Shown here: positions 5,468 to 64,000 of the stretch, one piece after another
Position numbering within the stretch: position 1 is the stretch's first letter
How the letters are laid out: every line of letters begins with the position of its first letter
Source of the DNA: Candidatus Poribacteria bacterium
GTDB lineage: Bacteria > Poribacteria > WGA-4E > WGA-3G
Reading direction: 5' to 3'
DNA: 64,000 nucleotides
Assembly (NCBI GenBank): GCA_965214095.1
Contig: OZ243938.1
Span: forward strand, 3,616,001-3,680,000
Notes under the pieces: generated by a model
Database searches by the model: none
Seen by the model: the letters and a program-made list of their open reading frames with translations, nothing else
What the model was told of the DNA's origin: nothing
Program-made: the position numbers and the translations under genes

Positions 5468-5675
5468 GCCGGTAGGTTCGGTTTCCTAACCGAACCGGAT
5501 TTGTGCCAAATACCTTTATAGAGGTTCTCGCACAGGTTGCGTGCGGTTAGGAAACCGCACCTATCGGCCTGGGGAAAACGCCTAATTTACACTAAATTGA
5601 CGCCTATGGTTCGGTTTCCTAACCGAACCTACCAGCACGGGAATAACGCGTAATTTTCCTTAAATTGATGCCCGA
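5468..5675. repeat. REP-A cluster with partial IS4-type MITE end
   Basis: GGTAGGTTCGGTTTCCTAACCGAACC hairpins; MITE end CTAAATTGACGCCTATG ends at 5608. Confidence 0.8.
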
Positions 5676-11942: not shown

Positions 11943-12141
11943 TTTTTGGATTACATAGATTGTGTCGTCAGTTGGGTTTAACCATTTAAATCCGACTTTT
12001 TTTGTTTGGACATTGTCTGAACCAGGATTTTCAGGATAAGAGTCTGATATTCTAAAGTTTCTATCTAATACTATTTCTGATTAATAATATATCATTTTAT
12101 CGTAGGTCGGGTAGAGGCACGAAACCCGACATGATAGACAC

Positions 12142-14025: not shown

Positions 14026-14276
14026 TGTCTGAACCAGGATTTGCAGGATTAGTAGATTACCAAGATTATGAGTTTGGCTCACCAAAGTTCCTATTCCCAG
14101 TTTGACGTTTATTCTCTGATACGCTATAATCCCAGGCCGGTAGGTTCGGTTTCCTAACCGAACCGGATCTTCTGAGAAAACCTTTTTGAATGGCATTGGC
14201 ACAAATCCGGTTCGGTTAGGAAACCGAACCTACCGGTCTGGTGAATAACGCTCATCCTGCAAATCCTGGTTCAGAC
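14026..14276. repeat. Family-B palindromic element with a nested REP-A doublet
   Basis: TGTCTGAACCAGGATT...AATCCTGGTTCAGAC ends; REP-A pair at 14137-14235 inside. Confidence 0.8.
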
Positions 14277-15245: not shown

Positions 15246-15503
15246 TATATCTGTGTATCTCCTGTCTTTAAGATTTTATGGTATTGAGTATAACATATTT
15301 TTTTTATTTCGTCATGTGGGTTTTGTTTGAATCGCGGATTTTCAGGATTTGAGTTTGATGTTTTATAGTGCCATTCTTAAGGTGACATTTTTTGTATCTT
15401 TGAGAGCCTCAATTTATAGTGGACATTTTTAGCTGAGAAGTCTTATCCTGTTAATCTACTAATCCTGTAAATCCTGGTTCAGACATTAATTGTTGAAAAA
15501 TAC

Positions 15504-16178: not shown

Positions 16179-19100
16179 ATGAACCTGTCAAATCGATTGA
16201 CATTTTCTTTTATCTTTTCTGTTATACTCGTTGCCCTGTTTGCTGTTGCGCCTGCAATGGCACAGACAATCGAAGCTACATGGTCAACGGATCGGAATGA
16301 TGATAATACCGCTAACGATCCGGGTTGGAGCGTTACGATTGGCGGACTTGCTGCGAGCGATACCGTAACCGTTACATATTTAGATCCTGATGGTACCGCA
16401 GCAGCGGCGACCGGCACCCAAGCAGGTTTTGATGGCGTAGCAGCGGATGCTACATCTGATACAGGCTCAATCCTCGCTGGCATTGGTGATGTCATTGCAG
16501 TGCAAGTTGAAGCAGGTCCATCAGGAACCACAACAACGTATCAACGTGTAACTTTTCCAGCAGGTGGTCCTGGTGCTACACTTGCATCAACGACCTTGAC
16601 TAGGCTTCCAAAGTTAATGGAACTTGCCAAATCTGAATATTACGTGTCATTTGGTGGAACAGTAACCTTGACATTTGATTTTGCAGATGCGGTTGCTGAT
16701 ACGAATGGTGCCCCTGTTGCTGACTTACATATAAGTGACGTCTCAATTGCTGCTGCTACTGATTGGGTAGTTGATAGTGTTAGCGGAACGAATCAAGTAA
16801 CAATTCGTTCAACTCATGATCGTACTGATACTTCAGTTGGGACTACAGTGGATCTTAGTGCTGTTTATGCCCAACCGACTGATCCAGCCACAGATGGTCA
16901 AGCAACGCTCACTTATGATAATATGGCACCGACCGTAACTGCTGATTCTGTTAGTGTAGCTGCACCTTCTGGTTTCCCCACACCTCCTGATGGCGTATGG
17001 GATAGTGTTTTCATTCTCACTTTCTCTGTTTCAGATGACGGTACTGGTAGTGGATTACCAGATGAAAATCCTGTCAGAATTGACACAGACGAAACTAAAC
17101 TTGATGTAGGTGTTGTGGGTTTAGCTCCCGCAAGCGATGTTGTTGGTACTGAGTATCTTGTTAGAATAACACCAAAAGTTGGTCGTGCAACAACCGCTGG
17201 CGAAGAGGTTGTTATCACAATAGTACCTATTGATAAATCCGGTAACGAAGGTAGTATGGCTACTACAGTTAAGTTGGCGGAGAGTACTCCTCCTGATGCA
17301 TTGTATACGTCTGCGGCTCCAGCAAGTGGTGATGTAATGCAAGGCGACGAAATCACAGTGACCTTTGCTTCAGATCCTGGTGCTGTAACAGCTACGGGTG
17401 CCGCAATCTCTGGTACCGGTGCAACACGCACTCTTACGGTTGATGCTGCTCAGGCAGTAGGTGCACTTGAAATTGTACTTACCTGGGGAGAAAGTGGTCG
17501 ACAAGTGCTTAATTATACAGTGGTAATTCCAGCTGTGGCGTTTACTTCAGCAGCTCCAGCAAGTGGTGCGACTGTAGAACAAGGTGACACAATTACTCTG
17601 ACCTTTGCTTCAGATCCTGGTACTGTAACAGCTACGGGTGCCGCAATCTCTGGTACCGGTGAAACACGCACTCTCACGGTTGCAGATGATCAAGCAGCAG
17701 GTGCTTTGTCAATTGCACTTTCGTGGGCTAATGGTGGTTCTCAGGCACTTTCTTACACAGTTTCTGTGTTTGTTTCAGCAAATCCAACTTCACCATCAAA
17801 CATTATGATGGTTGAAATTCCTGCAGAATCTTATGTTGTTCTCGTTAGATCAATGAGTACTACTGAAGGCGCATTGCAATTTCCAGATGTTCCACCAGTC
17901 AATGGTACAGCTGTTGATGTCCAAGCGTGGAGCGATATGCCGGATCTATGGGACCTTTTCCAGAGAACCGCGCAGAATCGTGGTGGTGCAATCGTTTTGA
18001 GAAAGTCCGCCGATGCCGCTGATAACGATATGAAAAACGATGACGATGAGTATATCGGAATGTACGCCACACCGGCTGTCGGTAGTGTCGGTATCAGTGA
18101 AATTATGTGGGCACGTGATCTCGGACAGGGAACTGCAGCTCAACAGGCAGCAGGACAGTGGATTGAACTTCAGAATCTCAATGATAAACCCGTTAAGGTT
18201 TTGATCTATGCACAGAAAGGAAGTGAAGGACTTGTTAGCGGCGGACTCCTTGTTGATACAGCTGCTGGTGACTCACTTCTTGGTAACCCTGGTGGTATGG
18301 TTATTGATGCTGTCCAAAACATCAGAAACGATGGCAATCAAACGAATGATGGCTGGGATATTAAAGGTCAGGACGGTAACAGTGTAGAAGGTGTATCTTT
18401 CGCCTCAATGCACAGGATCCTGCCGGATAAACAGCCTGCATATACGCTTGCTCAGAATTATACGAAACGCAAGGGTACAAACGGTGGGCATTGGGCAAAG
18501 TCCGGCGGTGCATATCTCCGTAGCCAGACAACCCACACTTCAGGTGGCGTTACCAACGTGCCAATCCTTTTTGACTACAGAGGCACACCGGGTGATGTGA
18601 ATAACCGTACTGGTATAGATTTCCACACGAAAGCTGGAAAGACGAACCTTAGTGACGGTGCAGAATTGATCTTCAATGAAATCGCGAACCGTTCCGATGC
18701 TGATAAAGATTACGAATGGATTGAAATTCTGAACAGAACTGACTCTGTTAAGAGTTTGCGGTCGTACATTATAACCATGCTAACGAAGAAGGGGACTAAT
18801 GACAACGATCAGGATCAGGAAACAGTATTGTATCATTTCGCACATGATACAAATGCTGATGTTCCGGCAAATGGTGTGTTGCTCTTAGTTGCTTCAGACC
18901 CAGCCAAAGACGATGAGCATCCGCTTTCTGTCGGTTACAACGTTGATGAGAATGAAGAAGATCAGGTTCCTGGTTTCAAAGGTGATCATGTGCCACGGTA
19001 TAAGGTCGTTAACTTTGGAAGCAACGGTCTACCGAATGGTAACTTTGTATTAGTCTTGCGTAGACCTGATACAGTTGAAGGTCATGATGATGGCGGTAGA

Positions 19101-20651
19101 GGCAGAGCCGAAACCGGTAGGGCTGATTTTGATAAGATCGTTGATATGGCAGGATACGCTAACTTAAAAGCAACTAATTATCCGAATCCAGTATCCAACA
19201 CAAACTTGTGGCCACTGGATGATTTCCCAGCACCAGGTTATACCAACAATAACCTTGTGGAAAACACGGTCCATTCTCGAGCAGTTGTTAGAGACAATAA
19301 AGATGGCGACCGTCTTGGCACAGGTGCTACGGACAATGATAACAACAAATCTGCATATAGAGACGCAGGTTTTACCGGTATTGGGTATAGACGTGATGTC
19401 CCCAGAGATGGTAGATACGGCGGTACTCCGGGTTATCATGGTTCGGAAAAAGGTCTTGCCACAGATCTCACTGACGACGTAGTTATTAGTGAATTAATGC
19501 TCTCTACTGGTAGTTCGACCAACAGACAACTGCCACAGTGGATTGAAATCACAAATAACTCAGGTACGAAAACCGTTAATCTTTCAGCTGATTCAGGTTG
19601 GAGATTGGTGATTGAAACACCTGTTGATGCAATCAGAACCCTTAACTTTAAAGATAAGGGACAGGTTAAATACATTTACCCGAAGCAAACAATTCTAATT
19701 GTTGCTGGTAGTCCTACACGTAATGCACAAGCAGGTAGTGATCGATTATCGAACGACATCATCTTCAAGTCTGATCGGGTCTTCAATGTTCTCAGAGAAT
19801 ATGGTACAGGATTTACTGAGATTCAAGATGATCCTGAAGATCTTCGGGCACCACTGACGAAGAGTGACCGCTACCGTTTCTTGAACCAGAAACACTTCAA
19901 TATTAGGTTGATTGACGGTAAAGGGACTGTTGCGGATGAAGTTGGTAACCTTGATGGAAATCCACGCACTAACGATACGGCTGACTGGGATTACCCGAGT
20001 GGTCTTACCAAAGATGGCGACCGAACTTCGTTCATTCGTGTCTTTGATGAAGGACTGAAGGCGCGCCAAGCTGTCGGTAGTGATGCTGTTGATGTGCTCC
20101 CACTTGATGCTGTCCGTTCCGGAGCAGTTGAAGAAGGGAAACTTGATCTTAATGATTATGACAGTGTTATTCCTGCAGAATATGCATGGATACATGCTGC
20201 AGCACTTAACTTTGATTCCATTTATGTCAGACATACCTGGTATGGAAGTGAAGATGACTATGGTACCCCCGGTGCTCTTAAAGGTCAGGTGTTACCAGTT
20301 CAATTGTCATTCTTCCGTCCGACATTGGAAGACGGTCAAGTTGTTATCCGTTGGACTACCGAATCTGAACTTGACAACGCTGGATTTAATATCTATCGTA
20401 GTGAAGATCGTAACGGTGAGTTCACAAAAGTCAATGAACAGTTAATACAAGGTAAAGGTACCACCGCGGAACGTAGCACCTATAATTGGGTTGATACTTC
20501 AGCGAAACCTGGTGCAGTTTACTACTATCAAATTGAAGATGTATCTTTCGCAGGTGAGCGTAATCCGCTTACGACTACTAAGTTGAAAGGCTTGATCTCG
20601 GCCAAGAACAAGCTGACAACGACGTGGAGCGAATTGAAATCACAGAATTAA
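16179..20651 (+). CDS. Large secreted surface protein (Ig-like repeats, several lamin-tail domains, C-terminal KLTTTWSELK tail); S-layer-like candidate
   Basis: 1490 aa, signal peptide, ISEIMW/FNEIAN/ISELM..QWIE lamin-tail motifs, LPVQLS..WTTESELDNAGFNIYR module. Confidence 0.75.
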   Translation: MNLSNRLTFSFIFSVILVALFAVAPAMAQTIEATWSTDRNDDNTANDPGWSVTIGGLAASDTVTVTYLDPDGTAAAATGTQAGFDGVAADATSDTGSILAGIGDVIAVQVEAGPSGTTTTYQRVTFPAGGPGATLASTTLTRLPKLMELAKSEYYVSFGGTVTLTFDFADAVADTNGAPVADLHISDVSIAAATDWVVDSVSGTNQVTIRSTHDRTDTSVGTTVDLSAVYAQPTDPATDGQATLTYDNMAPTVTADSVSVAAPSGFPTPPDGVWDSVFILTFSVSDDGTGSGLPDENPVRIDTDETKLDVGVVGLAPASDVVGTEYLVRITPKVGRATTAGEEVVITIVPIDKSGNEGSMATTVKLAESTPPDALYTSAAPASGDVMQGDEITVTFASDPGAVTATGAAISGTGATRTLTVDAAQAVGALEIVLTWGESGRQVLNYTVVIPAVAFTSAAPASGATVEQGDTITLTFASDPGTVTATGAAISGTGETRTLTVADDQAAGALSIALSWANGGSQALSYTVSVFVSANPTSPSNIMMVEIPAESYVVLVRSMSTTEGALQFPDVPPVNGTAVDVQAWSDMPDLWDLFQRTAQNRGGAIVLRKSADAADNDMKNDDDEYIGMYATPAVGSVGISEIMWARDLGQGTAAQQAAGQWIELQNLNDKPVKVLIYAQKGSEGLVSGGLLVDTAAGDSLLGNPGGMVIDAVQNIRNDGNQTNDGWDIKGQDGNSVEGVSFASMHRILPDKQPAYTLAQNYTKRKGTNGGHWAKSGGAYLRSQTTHTSGGVTNVPILFDYRGTPGDVNNRTGIDFHTKAGKTNLSDGAELIFNEIANRSDADKDYEWIEILNRTDSVKSLRSYIITMLTKKGTNDNDQDQETVLYHFAHDTNADVPANGVLLLVASDPAKDDEHPLSVGYNVDENEEDQVPGFKGDHVPRYKVVNFGSNGLPNGNFVLVLRRPDTVEGHDDGGRGRAETGRADFDKIVDMAGYANLKATNYPNPVSNTNLWPLDDFPAPGYTNNNLVENTVHSRAVVRDNKDGDRLGTGATDNDNNKSAYRDAGFTGIGYRRDVPRDGRYGGTPGYHGSEKGLATDLTDDVVISELMLSTGSSTNRQLPQWIEITNNSGTKTVNLSADSGWRLVIETPVDAIRTLNFKDKGQVKYIYPKQTILIVAGSPTRNAQAGSDRLSNDIIFKSDRVFNVLREYGTGFTEIQDDPEDLRAPLTKSDRYRFLNQKHFNIRLIDGKGTVADEVGNLDGNPRTNDTADWDYPSGLTKDGDRTSFIRVFDEGLKARQAVGSDAVDVLPLDAVRSGAVEEGKLDLNDYDSVIPAEYAWIHAAALNFDSIYVRHTWYGSEDDYGTPGALKGQVLPVQLSFFRPTLEDGQVVIRWTTESELDNAGFNIYRSEDRNGEFTKVNEQLIQGKGTTAERSTYNWVDTSAKPGAVYYYQIEDVSFAGERNPLTTTKLKGLISAKNKLTTTWSELKSQN

Positions 20652-20681
20652 CTCAGGGATATTCTAACTAACCTACCCCCG

Positions 20682-20720
20682 AGCGGATGGCGAACTTCGG
20701 TTCGTTATCCGCTTTTTTTT
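20682..20720 (+). terminator. Rho-independent terminator
   Basis: AGCGGATGGCGAAC-TTCG-GTTCGTTATCCGCT followed by a T run. Confidence 0.9.
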
Positions 20721-20732
20721 ATAGATGCGGAA

Positions 20733-20947
20733 TGTCTGAACCAGGATTCACAGGATTTTTAGATTTCCAGGATTTTCCGTGTCAAGTTTGTTTTGAAAAG
20801 TTGACATACTGTCGAGACAAACATTAATGTACACTTGACAAAGAGACACCAATAAGGTAATCCTGTAAATCTGTAAATCCTGTGAATCCTGGTTCAGACA
20901 GTTCCCAATAAGGTAATCCTATAATCCTGCTAATCCTGGTTCAGACA
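20733..20947. repeat. Family-B element (168 bp, 20733-20900) plus an extra half-site
   Basis: Terminal IR TGTCTGAACCAGGATTCACAGGATT with ~9-bp periodic CAGGATT units. Confidence 0.85.
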
Positions 20948-20994
20948 AAAAAATATAAATACATAACAAAAATATACATAAAAAGGAAGGTCAA

Positions 20995-21372
20995 ATGAAA
21001 GAAGAGAAATTAACATACCAAATCATCGGCTGTGCTATGGAGGTACATAGGAAGCTTGGTAACGGTTTTCAAGAAGTGATCTATCAACGTGCTCTTGAGA
21101 TTGAATTGGAACGCGCAGGAATTGGTTTTGAACGTGAAGTAGAATATCCTATCTATTATGATAAGATCAATATTGGGTCAAGAAGAGCAGACTTCATTGT
21201 TGGAGAAAAGGTGGTAATAGAATTGAAGGCACTCATTGCGTTAGAAGATGTTCATATAGCACAAGCCAGAAACTATCTGGAGGCATTTGATTTGGATATC
21301 GGTCTATTGATTAATTTTGGCGGGAAGAGTTTGGAGCATAAAAGGTTGTTCAATCCGAACAGAAATGATTGA
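20995..21372 (+). CDS. GxxExxY protein (PD-(D/E)XK nuclease superfamily)
   Basis: IIGCAMEVH..LGNGFQEVIY, RADFIV...VIELK, GLLINFG. Confidence 0.93.
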   Translation: MKEEKLTYQIIGCAMEVHRKLGNGFQEVIYQRALEIELERAGIGFEREVEYPIYYDKINIGSRRADFIVGEKVVIELKALIALEDVHIAQARNYLEAFDLDIGLLINFGGKSLEHKRLFNPNRND

Positions 21373-21379
21373 AGTAGGT

Positions 21380-21662
21380 TGTCTGAACCAGGATTCACAG
21401 GATTGGTAGATTTCCAGGATTTTCCGTGTCAAGTTTGTTTTGATAAGTTGACATACTGTCGAGACAAACATTAATGTACACTTGACAAAGAAACACCAAT
21501 AAGGTAATCCTGTAAATCTGTAAATCCTGTGAATCCTGGTTCAGGCTCTTATCCTGTAAATCTGTAAATCCTGTAAATCCTGGTTCAGGCTCTAATCCTG
21601 TAAATCTACTAATCCTGCTAATCCTGGTTCAGACTATTATCCTGTGAATCCTGGTTCAGACA
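21380..21662. repeat. Family-B element (21380-21547, direct copy of 20733-20900) plus three stacked half-sites
   Basis: About 6 mismatches to the upstream copy by eye; repeated AATCCTGGTTCAG units. Confidence 0.85.
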
Positions 21663-21665
21663 AAA

Positions 21666-23153
21666 TTACCAATCTTCAATCAATTGCACTAACAACCGCA
21701 CACCATAACCGGTTGCGCCTTCAGGGATATATGTGGACCCTTTCATTCCCCAGGCAGTGCCAGCGATGTCAAGATGCACCCACGGATACCCTTCAGCGAA
21801 CTTTTTGAGGAACGCGGCACCGGCAATCGTACCGGAAGTGCCATCACCGATGTTCTGCACATCAGCCACTTTGCTTTTTACGCCTTCATCATAATCATCC
21901 CACAGCGGCAGTTGCCAGACGCGTTCGTGCGTTTTGTCAGCGGCGTTCTTGACCTTCTCCATCAGCGCATCGTCTGTACCCATCGCACCCGCTGCGATAT
22001 GTCCGAGAGCCGCTATCACAGCACCTGTGAGGGTTGCTAAATCAATCACACCGTTGGGTTCATACTGTGCTGTCCAACCGAGTGCATCTGCTAAAATTAG
22101 TCTACCTTCGGCATCTGTATTCATAATCTCAATTGTTTTACCACCATAGGATGTCACAACATCTCCCGGTTTAATTGCAGTGGAACCCGGCATATTTTCA
22201 GTTGTCGCGATAATCCCGAGCACACGCACATCCGGTTTCAACTGACCGATGACCTGCATTGCACCTAATACGGCTGCAGCCCCGGACATGTCGTGTTTCA
22301 TCTCGTCCATCCCTTTGCCAGATTTCAACGATATGCCACCCGTATCAAAAGTAATCCCTTTGCCAACGAGGACAACGGTATCGTGTCCTTCCCCTTCAGG
22401 TGTATATTCCAAGATGATGAACCGTGGTTCTTCAGCACTCCCTTGTGCAACTGCTAATAGGGTACGAAAGCCTTTTTCTTCAAGTGTTGGTTTGTCAAAA
22501 ACTGTGCAGTCTAATCCGACTGTATCCGCAACTTCTTCGGCTTTTTCAGCGAGTTGTGTTGGCGTGAGATGGTTGCCGGGTTGATTGCTCAGATCGCGGG
22601 CAAGGATAGTGCCGTTAGCGATGGTTTCTCCGCGTGTAACAATCCGTTCCATCAGCGATTTCTCTGATTCACTTCCTACGAGAAAGGTCAGCGATTCAAG
22701 CGATTTATTTTCATCTTCCTTATCATCGCTTTGCGTTTTGTGCTGCTTGAATTCATATAATGAAAGCAAGCTGGCTTCAACGGCTGCTTGTGTCCACTCG
22801 TCTTGTGTTTCGGGTGGAATAGGCACAGCAATAGATTTAAGCCCCATATCACGGACTTGTCGCGCAGTGTGTCCAGCAACTTGCCGTACCTGTTCAGCAT
22901 CAAGTTTCTCAAACAATCCGAGTCCAACGAGTATGACACGCGGTGCAGCAATCCCACCGTTTGTATAGAGTACGCTTGTAGTCTTCGGTTTTCCTTTGAA
23001 ATCACCGAGGTTCAGAAACGTTTGTATGCTACCGTCCAATGCGGAATCAGCGGCTAAGAGTAGCTCATTGTGCATGTCATCTTCAAGCACTGGGATGAGG
23101 ATAGCATCCGTTTCTAATTGACGAAAATCACCTATATTGACAGTTATGTTCAT
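21666..23153 (-). CDS. pepA: Leucyl aminopeptidase
   Basis: LVGKGITFDTGG, MKHDMSG, NTDAEGRL. Confidence 0.95.
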   Translation of the reverse strand: MNITVNIGDFRQLETDAILIPVLEDDMHNELLLAADSALDGSIQTFLNLGDFKGKPKTTSVLYTNGGIAAPRVILVGLGLFEKLDAEQVRQVAGHTARQVRDMGLKSIAVPIPPETQDEWTQAAVEASLLSLYEFKQHKTQSDDKEDENKSLESLTFLVGSESEKSLMERIVTRGETIANGTILARDLSNQPGNHLTPTQLAEKAEEVADTVGLDCTVFDKPTLEEKGFRTLLAVAQGSAEEPRFIILEYTPEGEGHDTVVLVGKGITFDTGGISLKSGKGMDEMKHDMSGAAAVLGAMQVIGQLKPDVRVLGIIATTENMPGSTAIKPGDVVTSYGGKTIEIMNTDAEGRLILADALGWTAQYEPNGVIDLATLTGAVIAALGHIAAGAMGTDDALMEKVKNAADKTHERVWQLPLWDDYDEGVKSKVADVQNIGDGTSGTIAGAAFLKKFAEGYPWVHLDIAGTAWGMKGSTYIPEGATGYGVRLLVQLIEDW

Positions 23154-23230: not shown

Positions 23231-23487
23231 CTTATGCGTCAATTTAGCGTCCTTCCAAGTACCGGTAGGTTCGGTTTCCTAACCGAACCGGACTCACCCC
23301 CGTGTCGGTAGGTTCGGTTTCCTAACCGAACCGGCTTTGTGCCAAATACCTTCATAGAGGTTCTCGCGTAGGATCTGGTTCGGTTAGGAAACCGAACCTA
23401 CCATCACGGGGCGTAGGATCTGGTTCGGTTAGGAAACCGAACCTACCATCACGGGGCGTAGGATCCGGTTCGGTTAGGAAACCGAAC
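23231..23487. repeat. REP-A cluster with a 45-bp tandem array (about 3 units)
   Basis: CGTAGGATCTGGTTCGGTTAGGAAACCGAACCTACCATCACGGGG repeated from about 23367. Confidence 0.8.
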
Positions 23488-24974
23488 CATAAGCGTCAAT
23501 TTAGTGATTTTTTGCTGCATTTTCAAGGTGTTCTAATGTTGTGTCTCTATTAGCACGTCTCTCAATGTAGCACCCATTTTGGAAAGCGTGTTTTATTTCA
23601 TCAAAAGTTTGCCGAAAAGACATTATAGACTTGCGGAAACCTATTGCAAGTGTGCGTGCGAAGGTGCTAATAAGTTCTGCTGTTTTTGTTAGACTATGTT
23701 TTAGACATCGCCAGCCGACCCTTAACATGATCCAGTGCCGCATAATTGCGACGATGAGTTTTGCATATAACTCACATAAGATTCTATATGGCTTGTCGCT
23801 ACGGGAGGTATCAACTTTTCCAATGCTTTTGAAGCACTTGAACATCAACTCAATCTGCCATCGGATGCGTGCGACAGCACAAATCTGTTCAGCAGTCAGA
23901 TGGTCTACTTCTATATTAGTAATGTAGATATTCCATCTTGCGAGCTGAAGTCGTTTTGGTGAAGGTTTCGTCTGCTTCCGCTTCGCACGATGTTTTATCT
24001 CCTTAATACGCTGTTGGTTTTCTGTTTCTGAAAGTCTTTGAACAACTAATCGTGCTTTGAGACGCTTGTTTTTACCTATAAAGATTTGTTTGTCCTTGAA
24101 GTTATCAGAACCCTTCTTGAGCCATTTTAGCAAGCAAAAAGGGTCACCTGTTTCATCATAGAGAAAACACTGGACTTTGTAGCGTGATATCCAAAAGACG
24201 TTTGCATCGGAAAGTCTTTTGAAGGTATCAAGTGAATAATAGCCGAGGTCTGCGAGGCGCAAACTGCCGGCGGGTAGCATATCAATCTGCTTTTCAATAG
24301 TGCTATCAGCGGTGATACCATTGGTCAGTTCAAAGTGTTCAAAAGTGCCTGTGGCACTATCAAAACGCAGGTGGAGTTTCACGGCAGCTGTGTTCGGTTT
24401 GTTCTTTTTGCTTCCACCTTCCCAAGTTTCGTGGAGCACATCAGGGAGTGTAATCCAAGAACTATCTTGTAAATAGACACCAGTGAACTTTTCAAGGAGC
24501 GGAAGCGTTTGCGGGTCGGCAGAAATAACCTGGGAAGCAGTAGCATCAAGGATAACTTTCAGGGTCTCTGCTGCTTCAGATGTAAATCGTTGTTCAATGG
24601 CTTGTCGTGAGATTGAAATCCCCAGTACACCAGCAGTTTGCGCAAGTTGTGTATAGGTGGCATCCGGGTTTTCTAACCAAGTCCAAATAAGTATTTGAGC
24701 AAAACGACTACCGTTGAGTTTACAACTTCTTTTGACAAAACCTGTATTGAGAGCTGCATCATTGGCTATAGTTGTAAGAATATGTTGCATTTCTTTGGGA
24801 ACTTGTGATAATGTATTCATTGGAAACACCTCTTTGTAGACCATAATAACTCTATATCTACATTATATATGAGGTGTTTTCATTTTTACAGAAGTTTTAT
24901 TTCATAATTTATACTTTCTCTGATTAAAAGTTGACACTTATCGGTCTTAGTGCATCCTTAAATTGACGCTTATG
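23488..24974 (-). mobile_element. IS4-family insertion sequence, 1487 bp
   Basis: Perfect 16-bp TIR CATAAGCGTCAATTTA; flanked on both sides by GTTCGGTTAGGAAACCGAAC (23468-23487, 24975-24994). Confidence 0.88.
23501..24844 (-). CDS. IS4-family DDE transposase
   Basis: QDSS, LADLGY, RWQIELMFK (YREK-like; the Y position is A). The stop codon overlaps the TIR. Confidence 0.9.
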   Translation of the reverse strand: MVYKEVFPMNTLSQVPKEMQHILTTIANDAALNTGFVKRSCKLNGSRFAQILIWTWLENPDATYTQLAQTAGVLGISISRQAIEQRFTSEAAETLKVILDATASQVISADPQTLPLLEKFTGVYLQDSSWITLPDVLHETWEGGSKKNKPNTAAVKLHLRFDSATGTFEHFELTNGITADSTIEKQIDMLPAGSLRLADLGYYSLDTFKRLSDANVFWISRYKVQCFLYDETGDPFCLLKWLKKGSDNFKDKQIFIGKNKRLKARLVVQRLSETENQQRIKEIKHRAKRKQTKPSPKRLQLARWNIYITNIEVDHLTAEQICAVARIRWQIELMFKCFKSIGKVDTSRSDKPYRILCELYAKLIVAIMRHWIMLRVGWRCLKHSLTKTAELISTFARTLAIGFRKSIMSFRQTFDEIKHAFQNGCYIERRANRDTTLEHLENAAKNH

Positions 24975-33294: not shown

Positions 33295-33455
33295 TGTCTG
33301 AACCAGGATTTGCAGGATTTACAGATTTACAGGATAAGAATCTGAAACATCAAAGTGCCATCCAGAGAATAAACGTCAAACTCGGAATAGAAACTTGGCA
33401 GAGCCAAACTCATAATCCTGAAAATCTACTAATCCTGAAAATCCTGGTTCAGACA
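33295..33455. repeat. Family-B element (161 bp)
   Basis: TGTCTGAACCAGGATT...AATCCTGGTTCAGACA; shares its spacer with 37381-37541. Confidence 0.85.
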
Positions 33456-37302: not shown

Positions 37303-37672
37303 CTGGGTTATTTAGTTTTAGGGATTTTCGTTCAATATTATACACAAACGTTAAATTCAGTATGGGTTTGGATTCCTATTTGTCTGAACCAGGATTTTCA
37401 GGATTTTTAGATTTCCGGGATAAGAGTCTGAAACATCAAAGTGCCATCCAGATAATAAACGTCAAACTAAGAATAGGAACTTTGAAGAACCAAACTCATA
37501 ATCCTGAAAATCTACTAATCCTGAAAATCCTGGTTCAGACAAGAATCAATAAGTCCAACAAATGTTAAGAATGTCTTGAAGGAGTGCACAAACTGGCAGT
37601 TTGTGCTACAAAAATGCGGCGTTTTCTATTAGAAATGGTATAATTACGAAACCTTAGAACTAAATAACCCTG
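37303..37672. mobile_element. CAGGGTTATTTAG-type MITE with a nested family-B element (37381-37541) and a REP-E MITE fragment
   Basis: CTGGGTTATTTAG...CTAAATAACCCTG; CAGTAATGA is repeated near both ends. Confidence 0.65.
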
Positions 37673-38581: not shown

Positions 38582-38704
38582 TTTTATTGTCAAATGTATG
38601 TCTGAACCAGGATTTTCAGGATTAGTAGATTTCCAGGATAAGAGTCTGAAACATCCGCTTTGATGAAAAAGGGTTCTCTAAATACCACAAACTCGGACTT
38701 TATT

Positions 38705-39029
38705 CAGGGTTATTTATAGTAAAACGGACAATTAATGAAACATATTGTCCCAATTGTCTATTTATAAATGTAAGAGGCGCAATGAATTGCGCGACTACAA
38801 ACGCGTTTTTCTAAATGTAAATGTATTGTTAATTTCAAATTTCACTATAGTTTTAATAATTTTCAATCGATGAACGTTACTAATAGTTTATATCGTAGGT
38901 CGGGTAGAGCGTTAGCGAAACCCGACACGTTCAATGCTTGTCGGGTTTCGCTAACGCTCTACCCGACCTACAGGTGTTATATTGAAATGTGAAAAATATA
39001 GCAGAAAAACCGAAAACTAAATAACCCTG
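38705..39029. mobile_element. MITE (TIR CAGGGTTATTTA, 9-bp TSD GACTTTATT) containing a TA-flanked MITE (38717-38847) and REPs
   Basis: GACTTTATT at 38696-38704 and 39030-39038; inner element TAGTAAAA...TTTCACTA flanked by TA. Confidence 0.8.
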
Positions 39030-45413: not shown

Positions 45414-46163
45414 ATGCTAATATTATATTTAGTGATTGCATTGGTAACAGTGGTATTCGGTGCTGGAATTGCTATCATTTTTGAGGACAAACAGGTTGAA
45501 TTCCGTATTATATTCGGTTTTACTGCCGGTGCTGTCCTCGGTTTCGTGTTATATTTGATGGTCCATCTCTTCACTGACGTAGGCTATCCCATAGTTTTAG
45601 TGATGTGGGGTGGTTTTCTTTTTATATGGTTGTTAGAGTATCTTACACATCGGATACGGAAGCAGATAAATACGAATGCAGAGACACACAAGCAAAATAT
45701 CTGGGGAGTCAACATCACTCTGATCGGCTTATCCATCCACTCAATTGCAGATGGATTCAACCTCAGTATAGCTGCGGAGGAAGGAACATTCGGTATTGCA
45801 CTTGCACTCGGCGTTCTACTTCACCGATTGCCAGTCGCAACAGTTTTAACAACAGCCTTGCACCGAGTTTATGGCGTTGGACGCACAGCATTATGGCTTG
45901 CTCCGTTTATAATCGCGCCATTCATTGGTGCATTTATGGGAGAACAGTTACTGCATGGAGTCTTTGAAGAGTTCGTTGACTATTTATTGCCATTTGCAGC
46001 AGGGACATTATTGCACGTTGTGATGGATGGTATGAAGGGTGGTTGTGTGGCATCGGAAGAAAAGATGAGTAGGACAACGAAAATAGCATTCGTTATTGGA
46101 TTGATTATAACGCTATGTGCATTTTATTTTATTCCGGGTTTAGAGCATGACCATGCACACTAA
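45414..46163 (+). CDS. ZIP-family metal transporter
   Basis: IHSIADG, LLHRLP, AAGTLLHV, C-terminal HDHAH. Start set at ATG 45414. Confidence 0.8.
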   Translation: MLILYLVIALVTVVFGAGIAIIFEDKQVEFRIIFGFTAGAVLGFVLYLMVHLFTDVGYPIVLVMWGGFLFIWLLEYLTHRIRKQINTNAETHKQNIWGVNITLIGLSIHSIADGFNLSIAAEEGTFGIALALGVLLHRLPVATVLTTALHRVYGVGRTALWLAPFIIAPFIGAFMGEQLLHGVFEEFVDYLLPFAAGTLLHVVMDGMKGGCVASEEKMSRTTKIAFVIGLIITLCAFYFIPGLEHDHAH

Positions 46164-46569
46164 AGGTATTTTGCACAAATCCGGTTCGGTTAGGAAACCG
46201 AACCTACCGAACCATAGGCGTTTTCTCCAGGCTGGTAGGTGCGGTTTCCTAACCGCACGGAACTTGTGCGAGAACCTCCATGAAGGTATTTTGCACAAAT
46301 CCGGTTCGGTTAGGAAACCGAACCTACCGAACCATAGGCGTTTTCTCCAGGCTGGTAGGTGCGGTTTCCTAACCGCACGGAACTTGTGCGAGAACCTCCA
46401 TGAAGGTATTTTGCACAAATCCGGTTCGGTTAGGAAACCGAACCTACCGAACCATAGGCGTTTTCTCCAGGCTGGTAGGTTCGGTTTCCTAACCGCACGG
46501 AACCTGTGCGAGAACCTCTATGAAGGTATTTTGCACAAATCCGGTTCGGTTAGGAAACCGAATCTACCG
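46163..46569. repeat. 120-bp tandem repeat (about 3.4 units) derived from the REP-A/MITE interior
   Basis: The sequence recurs exactly every two 60-nt lines. Confidence 0.9.
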
Positions 46570-46662
46570 CTGATAGAAAGTGTAGATATAATTCTATGCT
46601 TCTCCATAATACCAATTAATAAATAAATCTTCATACGGGCTAAAGAGCATTTTAAGAAAAAA

Positions 46663-59264: not shown

Positions 59265-60362
59265 CTACTTCAATCCGCTACCCGTAAGAATGGAAACTGT
59301 GACATCATCCTTTTGGATAATACCTTGCTGTTGAAACTTATCATAACCGCTAATAACAACAGCAGAGGTCGGTTCTACATAGATACCTTGCTCAGCAAGT
59401 GTATTCATACCAGTAAGGATGTCAGCATCATCCACAGTGGTAAACGCTCCATCTGAGAAACGGATAGCATCCATAAGCATCTCACTACGGACAGGAAGTT
59501 CAGCGGTAATGCCTTCCGCAAGTGTCTGAGTGGTTTGTGGCATTCTTGAGATTGTAGGTGTCTTATCTCGGAAGGCGTTGTAGATAGGGCAGCAGGTAGC
59601 AGGTTGAACCCCAAGCAAGCGAGGAACACGATCAATCACACCCGCCTCATAAAGTTCAGAAAAACCGAGGTATAAACCAAGATAGATGCTACCAAATCCC
59701 ACAGGACAGATAATATGCTGTGGCAAAGAGTCACCAAATTGTTCAGTGATTTCAAAAGCGAGTGTTTTCGTGCCTTCTAAGAAGAAAGGATTCCAATTGT
59801 GAGAAGCATAACAGGTGTTTTGAGCGGCGTGTTGAACGGCTTCCGTAGTTGCCATCCGATTTCCCGGCACCAGTTTTAACGAAGCACCGTAAGCAGAAAT
59901 CTGTTTCAACTTGCCTTCTGAAGTGGAGTCAGGACAGTAGATCGTGCAGTGGATGCCTGCCCGCGCACTATACGCAGCGATGGCAGCACCCGCATTACCA
60001 GAGGAGTCCTCTACCACTGCATCAACTCCCAATGCTTTCAGATGTGTCAACAGCACAGAGGCACCACGGTCTTTATATGACCCAGTTGGACAGAGGTAGT
60101 CTAATTTTACGAAGTGTTTTGGGTTATCTGTAGGAGGATATAAAGGAACAATAGGTGTTATCCCTTCCCCGAGCGTAACGATGTCTGCGTCTGCGGGAAT
60201 AGGTAATGCATCACGATAACGCCAGAGGGATGGCGTTGAATTGTCCCATTGATATGAATAGGAGGTGTCTTTTTTGACCGTTAGCGGGGAACCGCAATCA
60301 CATTTGTATCGTAAAGGAGAGATGATGTAAGCAATGTTACATTTACTGCATAGGTATTGCAT
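59265..60362 (-). CDS. Threonine synthase-like PLP enzyme
   Basis: LGEGITP, PTGSYKDRG, DSSGNAG, VEPTSA, LTGSGLK. Confidence 0.88.
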   Translation of the reverse strand: MQYLCSKCNIAYIISPLRYKCDCGSPLTVKKDTSYSYQWDNSTPSLWRYRDALPIPADADIVTLGEGITPIVPLYPPTDNPKHFVKLDYLCPTGSYKDRGASVLLTHLKALGVDAVVEDSSGNAGAAIAAYSARAGIHCTIYCPDSTSEGKLKQISAYGASLKLVPGNRMATTEAVQHAAQNTCYASHNWNPFFLEGTKTLAFEITEQFGDSLPQHIICPVGFGSIYLGLYLGFSELYEAGVIDRVPRLLGVQPATCCPIYNAFRDKTPTISRMPQTTQTLAEGITAELPVRSEMLMDAIRFSDGAFTTVDDADILTGMNTLAEQGIYVEPTSAVVISGYDKFQQQGIIQKDDVTVSILTGSGLK

Positions 60363-60450
60363 AAAATGTCTGAACCAGGATTTTCAGGATTGGTAGATTT
60401 CCAGGATTATCTCTATCAGTGGTATCTGTCAATATTATACCAATTCTAAT

Positions 60451-62999: not shown

Positions 63000-63200
63000 A
63001 TCTCTATCCCTTTTAGTTGCATAGTAGTAGGCACACTCCGTGTGCCGTCCTATAGGTGTCAATTTCGGTTAGGAAACCCTGAGCATCAATTTCACCAAGG
63101 CTGGTAGGCTCGGTTTCCTAACCGAGCCGGATCCTACGCGAGAGCCTATAAAAAGACCGGTAGATGCGGTTTCCTAACCGCATCTATGAGACTAAACACA

Positions 63201-63526
63201 CACCAGTTCGGTTAGGAAACCGAACCTACCAGCACGGGTATCGGCACAACACCGGTTCGGTTAGGAAACCGAACCTACCAGCACGGGTATCGCCACTACA
63301 CTGGTTCGGTTAGGAAACCGAACCTACCGGCACGGGTATCGGCACAACACCAGTTCGGTTAGGAAACCGAACCTACCGGCACGGGTATCGGCACAACACC
63401 AGTTCGGTTAGGAAACCGAACCTACCAGCACGGGTATCGCCACTACACTGGTTCGGTTAGGAAACCGAACCTACCGGCACGGGTATCGGCACAACACCAG
63501 TTCGGTTAGGAAACCGAACCTACCGG
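63201..63526. repeat. 49-bp tandem REP-A array, 7 hairpin copies
   Basis: GTTCGGTTAGGAAACCGAACCTACC at 63206, 63255, 63304, 63353, 63402, 63451 and 63500. Confidence 0.9.
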
Positions 63527-63542
63527 CTGTGTTGATTACAAT

Positions 63543-64000
63543 CTATTTTAATATAACAAGCTGCCGTATTTGCTGGAAAGATGACGTTTCCAATCGGTAG
63601 AAATAGACACCACTTGCAACCCGTTCACCTAAAGCATTTCTACCATCCCAATACGCAGCACGTCCTTGGTTGTGATAGAAACCTTCGGACTGATACCCTA
63701 TAGTAAGCGTCCGAACAAGTCCACCTGTTGAATCATATATTGATATGGATACAGGGGACGCAACTGACAACTGATACGGAATCCACGTCTCAGGATTGAA
63801 CGGATTCGGATAGTTCTGCAACAACTTATCTTTGTTCGGTTGACCGATACTATCCAGTGTGACAGGAAGCAAAGCATTCGCTAAGTTATCAGGTGTTACC
63901 GTAAAGATGTATCTCTCAGAGGCAACGTTTCCGTTGGTATCAGTGACGGTAACTTCCAGTGTATCACCAACTTGCACAACGCTTCGATAGCTCAGGTCTG
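63543..64000 (-). CDS. 3' end of a paralog of 61128-62999 (partial)
   Basis: The visible 144 aa are nearly identical to the neighbour's C-terminus. Confidence 0.85.
   Translation of the reverse strand, partial: DLSYRSVVQVGDTLEVTVTDTNGNVASERYIFTVTPDNLANALLPVTLDSIGQPNKDKLLQNYPNPFNPETWIPYQLSVASPVSISIYDSTGGLVRTLTIGYQSEGFYHNQGRAAYWDGRNALGERVASGVYFYRLETSSFQQIRQLVILK

Follow-up and report, generated by a model that had tools for sequence, protein, structure and literature searches.

We analysed a window of 64,000 nucleotides from the 5.2-Mb genome of a Candidatus Poribacteria bacterium (G000), in which a small gene of the GxxExxY family lies between two copies of a long inverted repeat. The genes and repeats at the locus are the following.

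16179-20651, plus strand: surface gene, 1490 aa, with a lamin-tail domain, whose 3′ side is conserved and anchors the site
20681-20722, plus strand: terminator-like hairpin belonging to the surface gene upstream, with a T run past which the element of relatives starts directly
20733-20900, no strand: left doublet, a spacer between inverted arms of ~42 nt made up of TGTCTGAACC and CAGGATT units of ~9 bp
20901-20947, no strand: extra right-hand arm of 47 nt, which repeats the end of the left doublet in tandem
20995-21372, plus strand: GxxExxY / PDDEXK_3 gene, 125 aa (TIGR04256 137.9 bits, cut-off 35)
21380-21547, no strand: right doublet, a direct copy of the left one with exactly 6 mismatches in 168
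21548-21662, no strand: three stacked right-hand arms with spacing 44, 44 and 27, reaching to 3 nt from the stop codon of pepA
21666-23153, minus strand: leucyl aminopeptidase gene pepA, without linkage to the site in the relatives examined

The preliminary description of this DNA had proposed two direct 168-bp copies with about 6 mismatches, each forming a long hairpin, and extra half-sites stacked on both sides of the gene; all of this was confirmed. Folding of the left doublet as DNA gave one long hairpin of −46.2 kcal/mol (z −9.9), a stability that none of 200 shuffled sequences equaled. The spacer of the gene-flanking doublets was present in these two doublets only. The gene is single-copy in the genome and convergent with pepA, and its product scored 130.1 bits against PF13366 (cut-off 22) in a profile search. 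A 538-nt piece (20871-21408) was found without differences in contigs of two public runs, which may be the source sample, and the identity supports the assembly. No convincing promoter for the GxxExxY gene was found in the window; in two relatives, G030 (L005) and G020 (L007), a promoter-like TTGACA-17-TATAAT pair lies ahead of the gene, between arm and gene.

Structure modeling (pLDDT 95) predicted that the 125-aa protein is a PD-(D/E)XK core with a minimal Cas4/RecB-type fold. Its key residues are E37, D66, E76, K78, Q90 and Y94, the last five of which are conserved in 136/136 loci; we take its motif to be of the QxxxY type, the residues themselves coming from the alignment. With the model as the query, the top Foldseek match was the Cas4 protein SSO0001 (E 8e-5, TM 0.6). 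By VIA-align, BpuSI (Z 8.1, rmsd 2.9, 95 aligned) tied with SSO0001 (Z 7.9, rmsd 4.2, 103 aligned), the Cas4 and Hjc structural matches reached Z 6.5-7.9, and lambda exonuclease was found as well; no solved structure related by sequence was found. The Fe-S cysteine set is absent, with a single conserved Cys in the alignment, and a Cas4b profile matched weakly (42 residues covered, E 4e-4). There were no cas neighbors among 90 flanking frames scanned, and no CRISPR array, Cas1 or TnsB/TnsC partner was seen beside the gene. Neither Y1_Tnp nor NF047646 matched at the gene, profile comparison of GxxExxY with RAYT gave a probability of 0.3%, and profile and structure searches found no DDE domain. 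The protein is neither a RAYT nor a DDE transposase. A PHROGs search yielded one weak match to a family of unknown function, and a protein atlas search returned GxxExxY clusters only. Among five orthologues, dN/dS was 0.02-0.09 (8 of 10 pairs computable), and the gene is under strong purifying selection, with its predicted catalytic residues intact.

The PDDEXK_3 family is described as having no known function and as having undergone multiple transfers (PMC3424549, accessible part). It is large, with 15,705 clusters at 50% identity matching at E ≤0.001. Tandem-fused GxxExxY proteins of 250-295 aa include P0129, P0136, P0141, P0158, P0164 and P0165, among others. The best 150 representatives contained 22 homologues of 240-300 aa, mostly two-domain tandem forms, with exactly one ExK motif in 19, none in 3 and two in 0 of the 22. 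A single ExK per tandem fusion suggests that GxxExxY may work as an asymmetric dimer with one active site.

A GTDB scan, from which the best 80 of 594 confirmed matches were retained, provided 79 loci with 60-72% identity, those of Mucilaginibacter flavus and Pontibacter fetidus among them, and one viral locus was added. The closest named relative of the protein among these best 80 of 594 matches came from Candidatus Poribacteria. The relaxed arm pattern was drawn up after inspecting the flanks of the GTDB loci. With it, 73 of 76 related loci with full flanks, from many phyla, showed an arm at most 300 nt from the gene, versus 9 of 277 control windows taken 0.9-1.8 kb away from the gene, which upholds the proposed tie between the repeats and GxxExxY. 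Arms were present on both sides of the gene at 57 of the 76 loci. The gene was enclosed by an inward-facing arm pair in 27/80 loci and lay between outward-facing inner arms in 16/80, the window locus having the latter layout. Gene and arms form a unit, either as a ~0.5-kb cassette within one inverted pair or as a gene between two doublets.

More distant clades were collected from 61 Poribacteria-order genomes and 151 Mucilaginibacter genomes (the 30 best loci of the latter). They carry other arms than the window clade: one further protein clade has ACCACAGAG arms, and Mucilaginibacter has four arm types, each with its own protein clade. The arm type of the window, for its part, was found in at least eight phyla. 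On a tree of 136 rows and 124 columns, made by a quick method with 61 of 132 branches open and leaving out L026-L028 (fragments or weak) and L278, the eight arm labels changed 17 times versus a shuffled mean of 55.8, and 0 of 200 shuffles were as low; because the labels were set by eye, some being misassigned, and kinship among the rows inflates the shuffle test, it shows clustering, not coevolution. On this tree, the arm type appears to follow the protein clade, not the host, and the expected co-phylogeny of protein clade and flanking repeat was found in the sense that the two covary across hosts. No literature linking GxxExxY, PDDEXK_3, PF13366 or TIGR04256 to flanking repeats was found in a search of mostly open-access literature. 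The pairing of this nuclease family with cognate repeats is real and general, and apparently undescribed.

The reading that we favor, and hold to be probable, is that gene and arms are a co-inherited unit in which the nuclease maintains and spreads the arms, a RAYT-like role based on unrelated chemistry. Covariation of gene and arm would also be expected from plain linkage, which tempers this reading. Gene neighborhoods temper it too. Restriction-modification genes adjoin 19 of 49 loci (90 of 141 frames scanned), which fits a function in defense as well. One may suppose a host-beneficial nuclease, such as an accessory of defense or DNA repair, that recognizes the arms as DNA or RNA hairpins for regulation or self-marking, with arm spread as a by-product. 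Such a role is in keeping with neighbors on the same strand as the gene (127 of 141), with strong purifying selection at a fixed site, with the weak Cas4b match, and with the rarity of the gene on mobile replicons (8 of 72,556 plasmid records, 0 of 50,697 phages and 1 viral locus). We nevertheless find it quite unlikely: the remaining 30 of 49 loci had no restriction-modification match and many housekeeping neighbors, the gene is patchy across genomes and often broken or lost, defense models matched the protein over no useful length, and RAYTs show a similar housekeeping pattern according to the accessible part of PMC5581495.

At the scale of the genome, a filtered scan of the main contig of G000 detected 155 arm half-sites at 110 sites, and a reversed control pattern gave 0 matches across all 61 genomes. 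The arm pairs are symmetric, inverted and dispersed over both strands, with 72 of the 155 half-sites making up 36 inverted doublets. Only 2 of the 155 carry GTAG or GTGG at the arm end, in agreement with the original statement that these repeats lack the GTAG tag of RAYT REPs. That account had also listed nine gene-less relatives in the window. All nine places hold arms and lie outside long ORFs, but several are not doublets:

2318-2465, no strand: gene-less doublet that has the common spacer and has lost its left tip
12014-12037, plus strand: lone left arm
14026-14276, no strand: gene-less doublet with a GTAG REP pair inside, starting 3 nt past a stop codon
15324-15485, no strand: hybrid doublet, left arm CGCG-type and right arm CAGG-type
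33295-33455, no strand: gene-less doublet with the common spacer
37381-37541, no strand: gene-less doublet with the common spacer, nested in a MITE with CAGGG ends
38599-38640, plus strand: lone left arm, 17 nt past a stop codon
53698-53832, minus strand: two right arms in tandem with a 90-nt period
60367-60408, plus strand: lone left arm, 4 nt from the start of the gene at 59265-60362

The gene-less copies had been described as having other spacers; instead of one spacer each, most gene-less doublets of G000 share a common one of ~85 nt. The hybrid doublet at 15324-15485 joins arms of two GxxExxY clades, in a genome without a CGCG-clade gene; the exact CGCG arm occurs in 1 copy in G000. Arms were denser close to the GxxExxY gene, but unrelated GTAG REPs were equally enriched there, and local hopping near the gene was rejected for this reason. 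For three unrelated repeat families, few stretches of the chromosome are as densely occupied as the window.

Long stable hairpins on both sides of a gene that follows a terminator, with no convincing promoter found in the window, are also what one might expect of RNA elements. The arms would then be terminators, mRNA stabilizers or antitoxin RNAs that control a toxic nuclease, and would have no role at the DNA level. We give this very little credence, as the arms form symmetric inverted pairs on both strands and the filled/empty polymorphism and spacer turnover reported below are DNA events. In addition, Rfam returned no family at the gathering score, its three weak miRNA-type hairpin matches lying far below the cut-off.

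Other mobile elements are interleaved with the arms in G000. A MITE family with CAGGGTTATTTAG ends is found genome-wide, with examples in the window at 37303-37672 and 38705-39029, and its cargo differs by copy, consisting of several kinds of GTAG REP pair or of a GxxExxY-type doublet. Of the 155 half-sites, 63 (~40%) share the outer flanks of an ordinary CAGGG MITE, and 23 lie at most 160 nt from an inward-facing CAGGG MITE end; nesting was similar in 60 loci of G005 and G019. DDE_Tnp_1 gave 25 matches in G000, and at orthologous intergenic sites many repeat families are combined in mosaics. An IS4-family transposase gene at 23501-24844 is flanked by REP hairpins, with 12 more full-length related matches in the genome.

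Those observations raise the possibility that the arms are passive cargo, moved by DDE MITEs, RAYT-like enzymes or host recombination and slippage, and that GxxExxY was captured long ago, is linked to them by descent and has another function. The DDE-type MITE flanks count against the reading that we favor, as does the abundance of arms without the gene. Five relatives (G005, which is a single contig, G016, G019, G029 and G035) hold 119-294 exact arm copies each, and no GxxExxY protein was matched in them even at E 1, an outcome that the first account had itself named as counting against it. In the host genus, 12 of 36 relatives had a gene match over the cut-off and 33 of 36 had an arm. The prediction that copy number tracks gene presence failed there, with median arm copies of 33 with any GxxExxY versus 18.5 without (p 0.59). 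For the cognate clade (n = 5), the medians were 61 versus 20.5 (p 0.09), the best copy alone having been classed in most genomes, and 12 of 32 genomes without the cognate clade had arms as numerous as genomes with it. The prediction did hold in Mucilaginibacter, where the medians were 13 arms in 118 genomes with the gene versus 3 in 32 without it (p 1e-5, a value that overstates the effect because the genomes are kin and differ in size); at least 20 arms were found in 43 of the 118 versus 2 of the 32, G072 being left out of the count.

Several results nevertheless make passive cargo an unlikely account. MITE flanks are lacking at 92 of the 155 half-sites, and arms and cassettes of Bacteroidota and other phyla have no MITE ends and no duplications. 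A passenger would not hold clade-specific arms flush at both of its ends across 35-100% protein identity. A missing partner enzyme is, moreover, normal in G000, which contains ~300 exact GTAG REP copies (e.g., 5470-5640, 23263-23500, 46163-46580 and 63090-63590) and in which no intact RAYT was found, only a 5′-truncated Y1 fragment at G000:C1:2666075 and four IS200/IS605 TnpA genes. As REPs persist in this genome without an intact RAYT, the absence of GxxExxY does not refute the link between gene and arms.

Presence and absence of elements between relatives, which had been anticipated, was seen in Mucilaginibacter and in loci anchored on the surface gene. In G066 and G202 two genes are separated by a 491-bp cassette. 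G211 lacks it, the flanks being joined there, and no duplication was visible at this junction, at 82% flank identity. A second Mucilaginibacter junction holds a gene cassette with one arm type in 4 of 6 genomes and gene-less elements with other arm types in 2 of 6. A doublet in G066 versus G202 was discarded as a filled/empty pair, the site holding another repeat. In L241 and L244, part of a neighbor gene is replaced relative to L242. Among 23 gene-bearing and 52 gene-less elements, no target duplication of at least 3 nt was found beyond shuffled pairs, except for an 8-nt signal from one tandem array; a 2-nt duplication in the gene-less set had p 0.014. As a positive control for the test, the neighboring MITE family of G000, that with CAGGGTTATTTAG ends, showed exact 9-bp target duplications in 15 of 37 pairs. 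The lack of duplication supports the view that the arms are not termini of an element moved by a DDE transposase, and insertion appears to occur without target duplication and often by replacement. An AATT target duplication suggested by the flank consensus found no support in the same test. In L223, L231 and L169, the 3′ end of the upstream gene (~20-45 nt) is repeated past the element, over ~45 nt in L223 and in shorter or diverged form in the other two; these repeats differ from a fixed target duplication, and two of the upstream ends belong to methylase genes (motif or Pfam). Right ends lay at most 6 nt from an ATG in 25 of 60 cases versus 12% at random positions, and this proximity, like the co-orientation, could be explained by selection for harmless sites. 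A preference for terminator T runs was dropped as a rule: two sites had suggested it, but it held for just 2 of 60 left ends of gene-bearing elements and for 0 of 92 half-sites of this genome.

An empty site between the surface gene and pepA, which had been expected in relatives, was not found: 30 of 41 pepA matches were fetched, and in the loci of 29 relatives the neighbors of pepA differ. The 3′ end of the upstream surface gene was therefore used as the anchor, yielding 30 loci, some of them paralogous. At this site, G000, G021, G020 and G030 have gene and arms, G006 has doublets with the gene ~5 kb off, G005 and G063 have a lone arm past the terminator, and several other relatives have no arm. 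In G032 the site is occupied by a RAYT gene (NF047646, 120.9 bits) with its own REPs (L129:1690-2641). Two unrelated gene-plus-repeat systems, GxxExxY and RAYT, hence alternate at one terminator, G032 being a close relative. Comparison of the spacers on the two sides of the gene gave, for 4 of 5 orthologues, scores of 95-100 of 100 within a genome and 10-19 between genomes, indicating that both flanks are renewed together while the gene stays. At a Pontibacter site inspected by eye, an arm or remnant was present at the terminator in ~18 of 30 loci and the gene was kept in 2. Nearly all relatives read (L036-L064) differ from one another in the DNA that lies downstream of pepA, and gene order between G000 and G021 breaks at the pepA 3′ end (21666), where the arm stack may mark a rearrangement point. 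No clean base-exact junction was found in Poribacteria in 60 loci of G032 and G021 compared with G000, the sites showing replacement by other repeats or no colinear pair. No empty copies were found within G000, and no excision joint across the gene was listed in the assembled contigs of four runs (contigs only).

The window copy is resident at one fixed site. The locus had been put forward as the autonomous unit of a mobile-repeat system. That picture stands in its main lines, but as an account of the copies in this genome the claim is too strong for a single resident gene. In this lineage the gene sits at one site and is often lost, and other transposons add copies. Within the reading that we favor, the enzyme on balance probably acts on its arms to propagate them. 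We propose more tentatively, and with some doubt, a particular nick-and-copy route. The nuclease would recognize the arms, binding their 9-bp units as a dimer in which one active site works; an arm that has formed a hairpin or cruciform would be nicked; and the element would be copied in through host repair or template switching. Insertions free of duplications, replaced neighbor DNA, stacks of arms and agreement between left and right spacers would follow from such a route. On the other side, we know of no strand-joining chemistry for a 125-aa nuclease. A broader proposition, which seems to us nearly but not quite as likely to be right as wrong, is that GxxExxY proteins mobilize a very large and so far unrecognized class of selfish DNA. 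Its ~0.5-kb elements would need no recombinase of the DDE, HUH, serine or tyrosine kind; by means of a stand-alone Cas4/RecB-type nickase they would copy themselves and their gene-less hairpins into terminator ends and stop/start junctions. Enzyme and arms would coevolve as lock and key, and some lineages, this one included, would have domesticated the gene as happens with RAYTs, to the point of competing with a RAYT for one site.

The arrangement by which RAYT-REPIN systems are recognized was found here: a cognate repeat borders the gene, and further copies of it are dispersed as inverted doublets. RAYT (TnpA-REP)/REPIN systems, REPtrons and TIRtrons likewise consist of a small gene flanked by its own repeat family, and GxxExxY resembles RAYT/REPIN in that each protein type has one type of repeat, that inverted doublets and singlets without the gene occur in intergenic DNA, and that the gene is a single resident copy, patchy and rare on plasmids and phages (accessible parts of PMC3116915, PMC5581495, PMC6006769 and PMC3733652). 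A RAYT even occupies the very site of GxxExxY in G032. Unlike RAYTs, GxxExxY has a predicted PD-(D/E)XK fold without an HUH or catalytic-Tyr transposase core, and its gene is often inside one inverted pair and exchanged between phyla; unlike REPs, its arms lack the GTAG tag and are not self-palindromic, being ~42-nt runs of 8-10-bp units. The gene within terminal inverted repeats and the gene-less derivatives recall IS elements and their DDE MITEs, as do the TG...CA-like ends of the window clade, although other GxxExxY clades have no such ends. IS1272, for which the accessible part of PMC5678879 reports insertion that replaces inverted repeats, similarly shows no target duplication, replaced hairpins and tandem end duplications. 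GxxExxY differs from IS elements in that its protein, of 125 aa only, has no DDE domain, there is no fixed duplication, and one to few diverged copies are present per genome. It shares the PD-(D/E)XK core and the QxxxY motif with Cas4/RecB nucleases (SSO0001, PDB 4ic1) and Hjc, but not the Fe-S cysteine set, CRISPR array or Cas1 neighbor of Cas4. Tn7 TnsA is also a PD-(D/E)XK enzyme serving in transposition (accessible part of PMC3424549), whereas the GxxExxY gene has no TnsB/TnsC partner beside it. The window gene is a clear member of PDDEXK_3 / TIGR04256, and a link to repeats is absent from the published descriptions found, as far as the accessible parts of PMC3424549, 10.1101/2021.01.26.428298, PMC5581495, PMC3116915, PMC6006769, PMC3733652 and PMC5678879 go. 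GxxExxY and its arms work like RAYT-REPIN and in part like IS elements with their MITEs, but lack the defining characters of both, and the pairing of enzyme and repeat matches no known system.

For a huge family listed as having no known function, a cognate DNA site for each clade offers a direct and cheap test. If the enzyme moves the arms, bacterial repeats would have a third way of spreading besides those of DDE MITEs and HUH REPINs, and this would account for one common class of intergenic repeat found in Bacteroidota, Poribacteria, Cyanobacteria and Chloroflexota. In that case, a 125-aa protein with naturally varied sequence specificity could also serve as a compact nickase.
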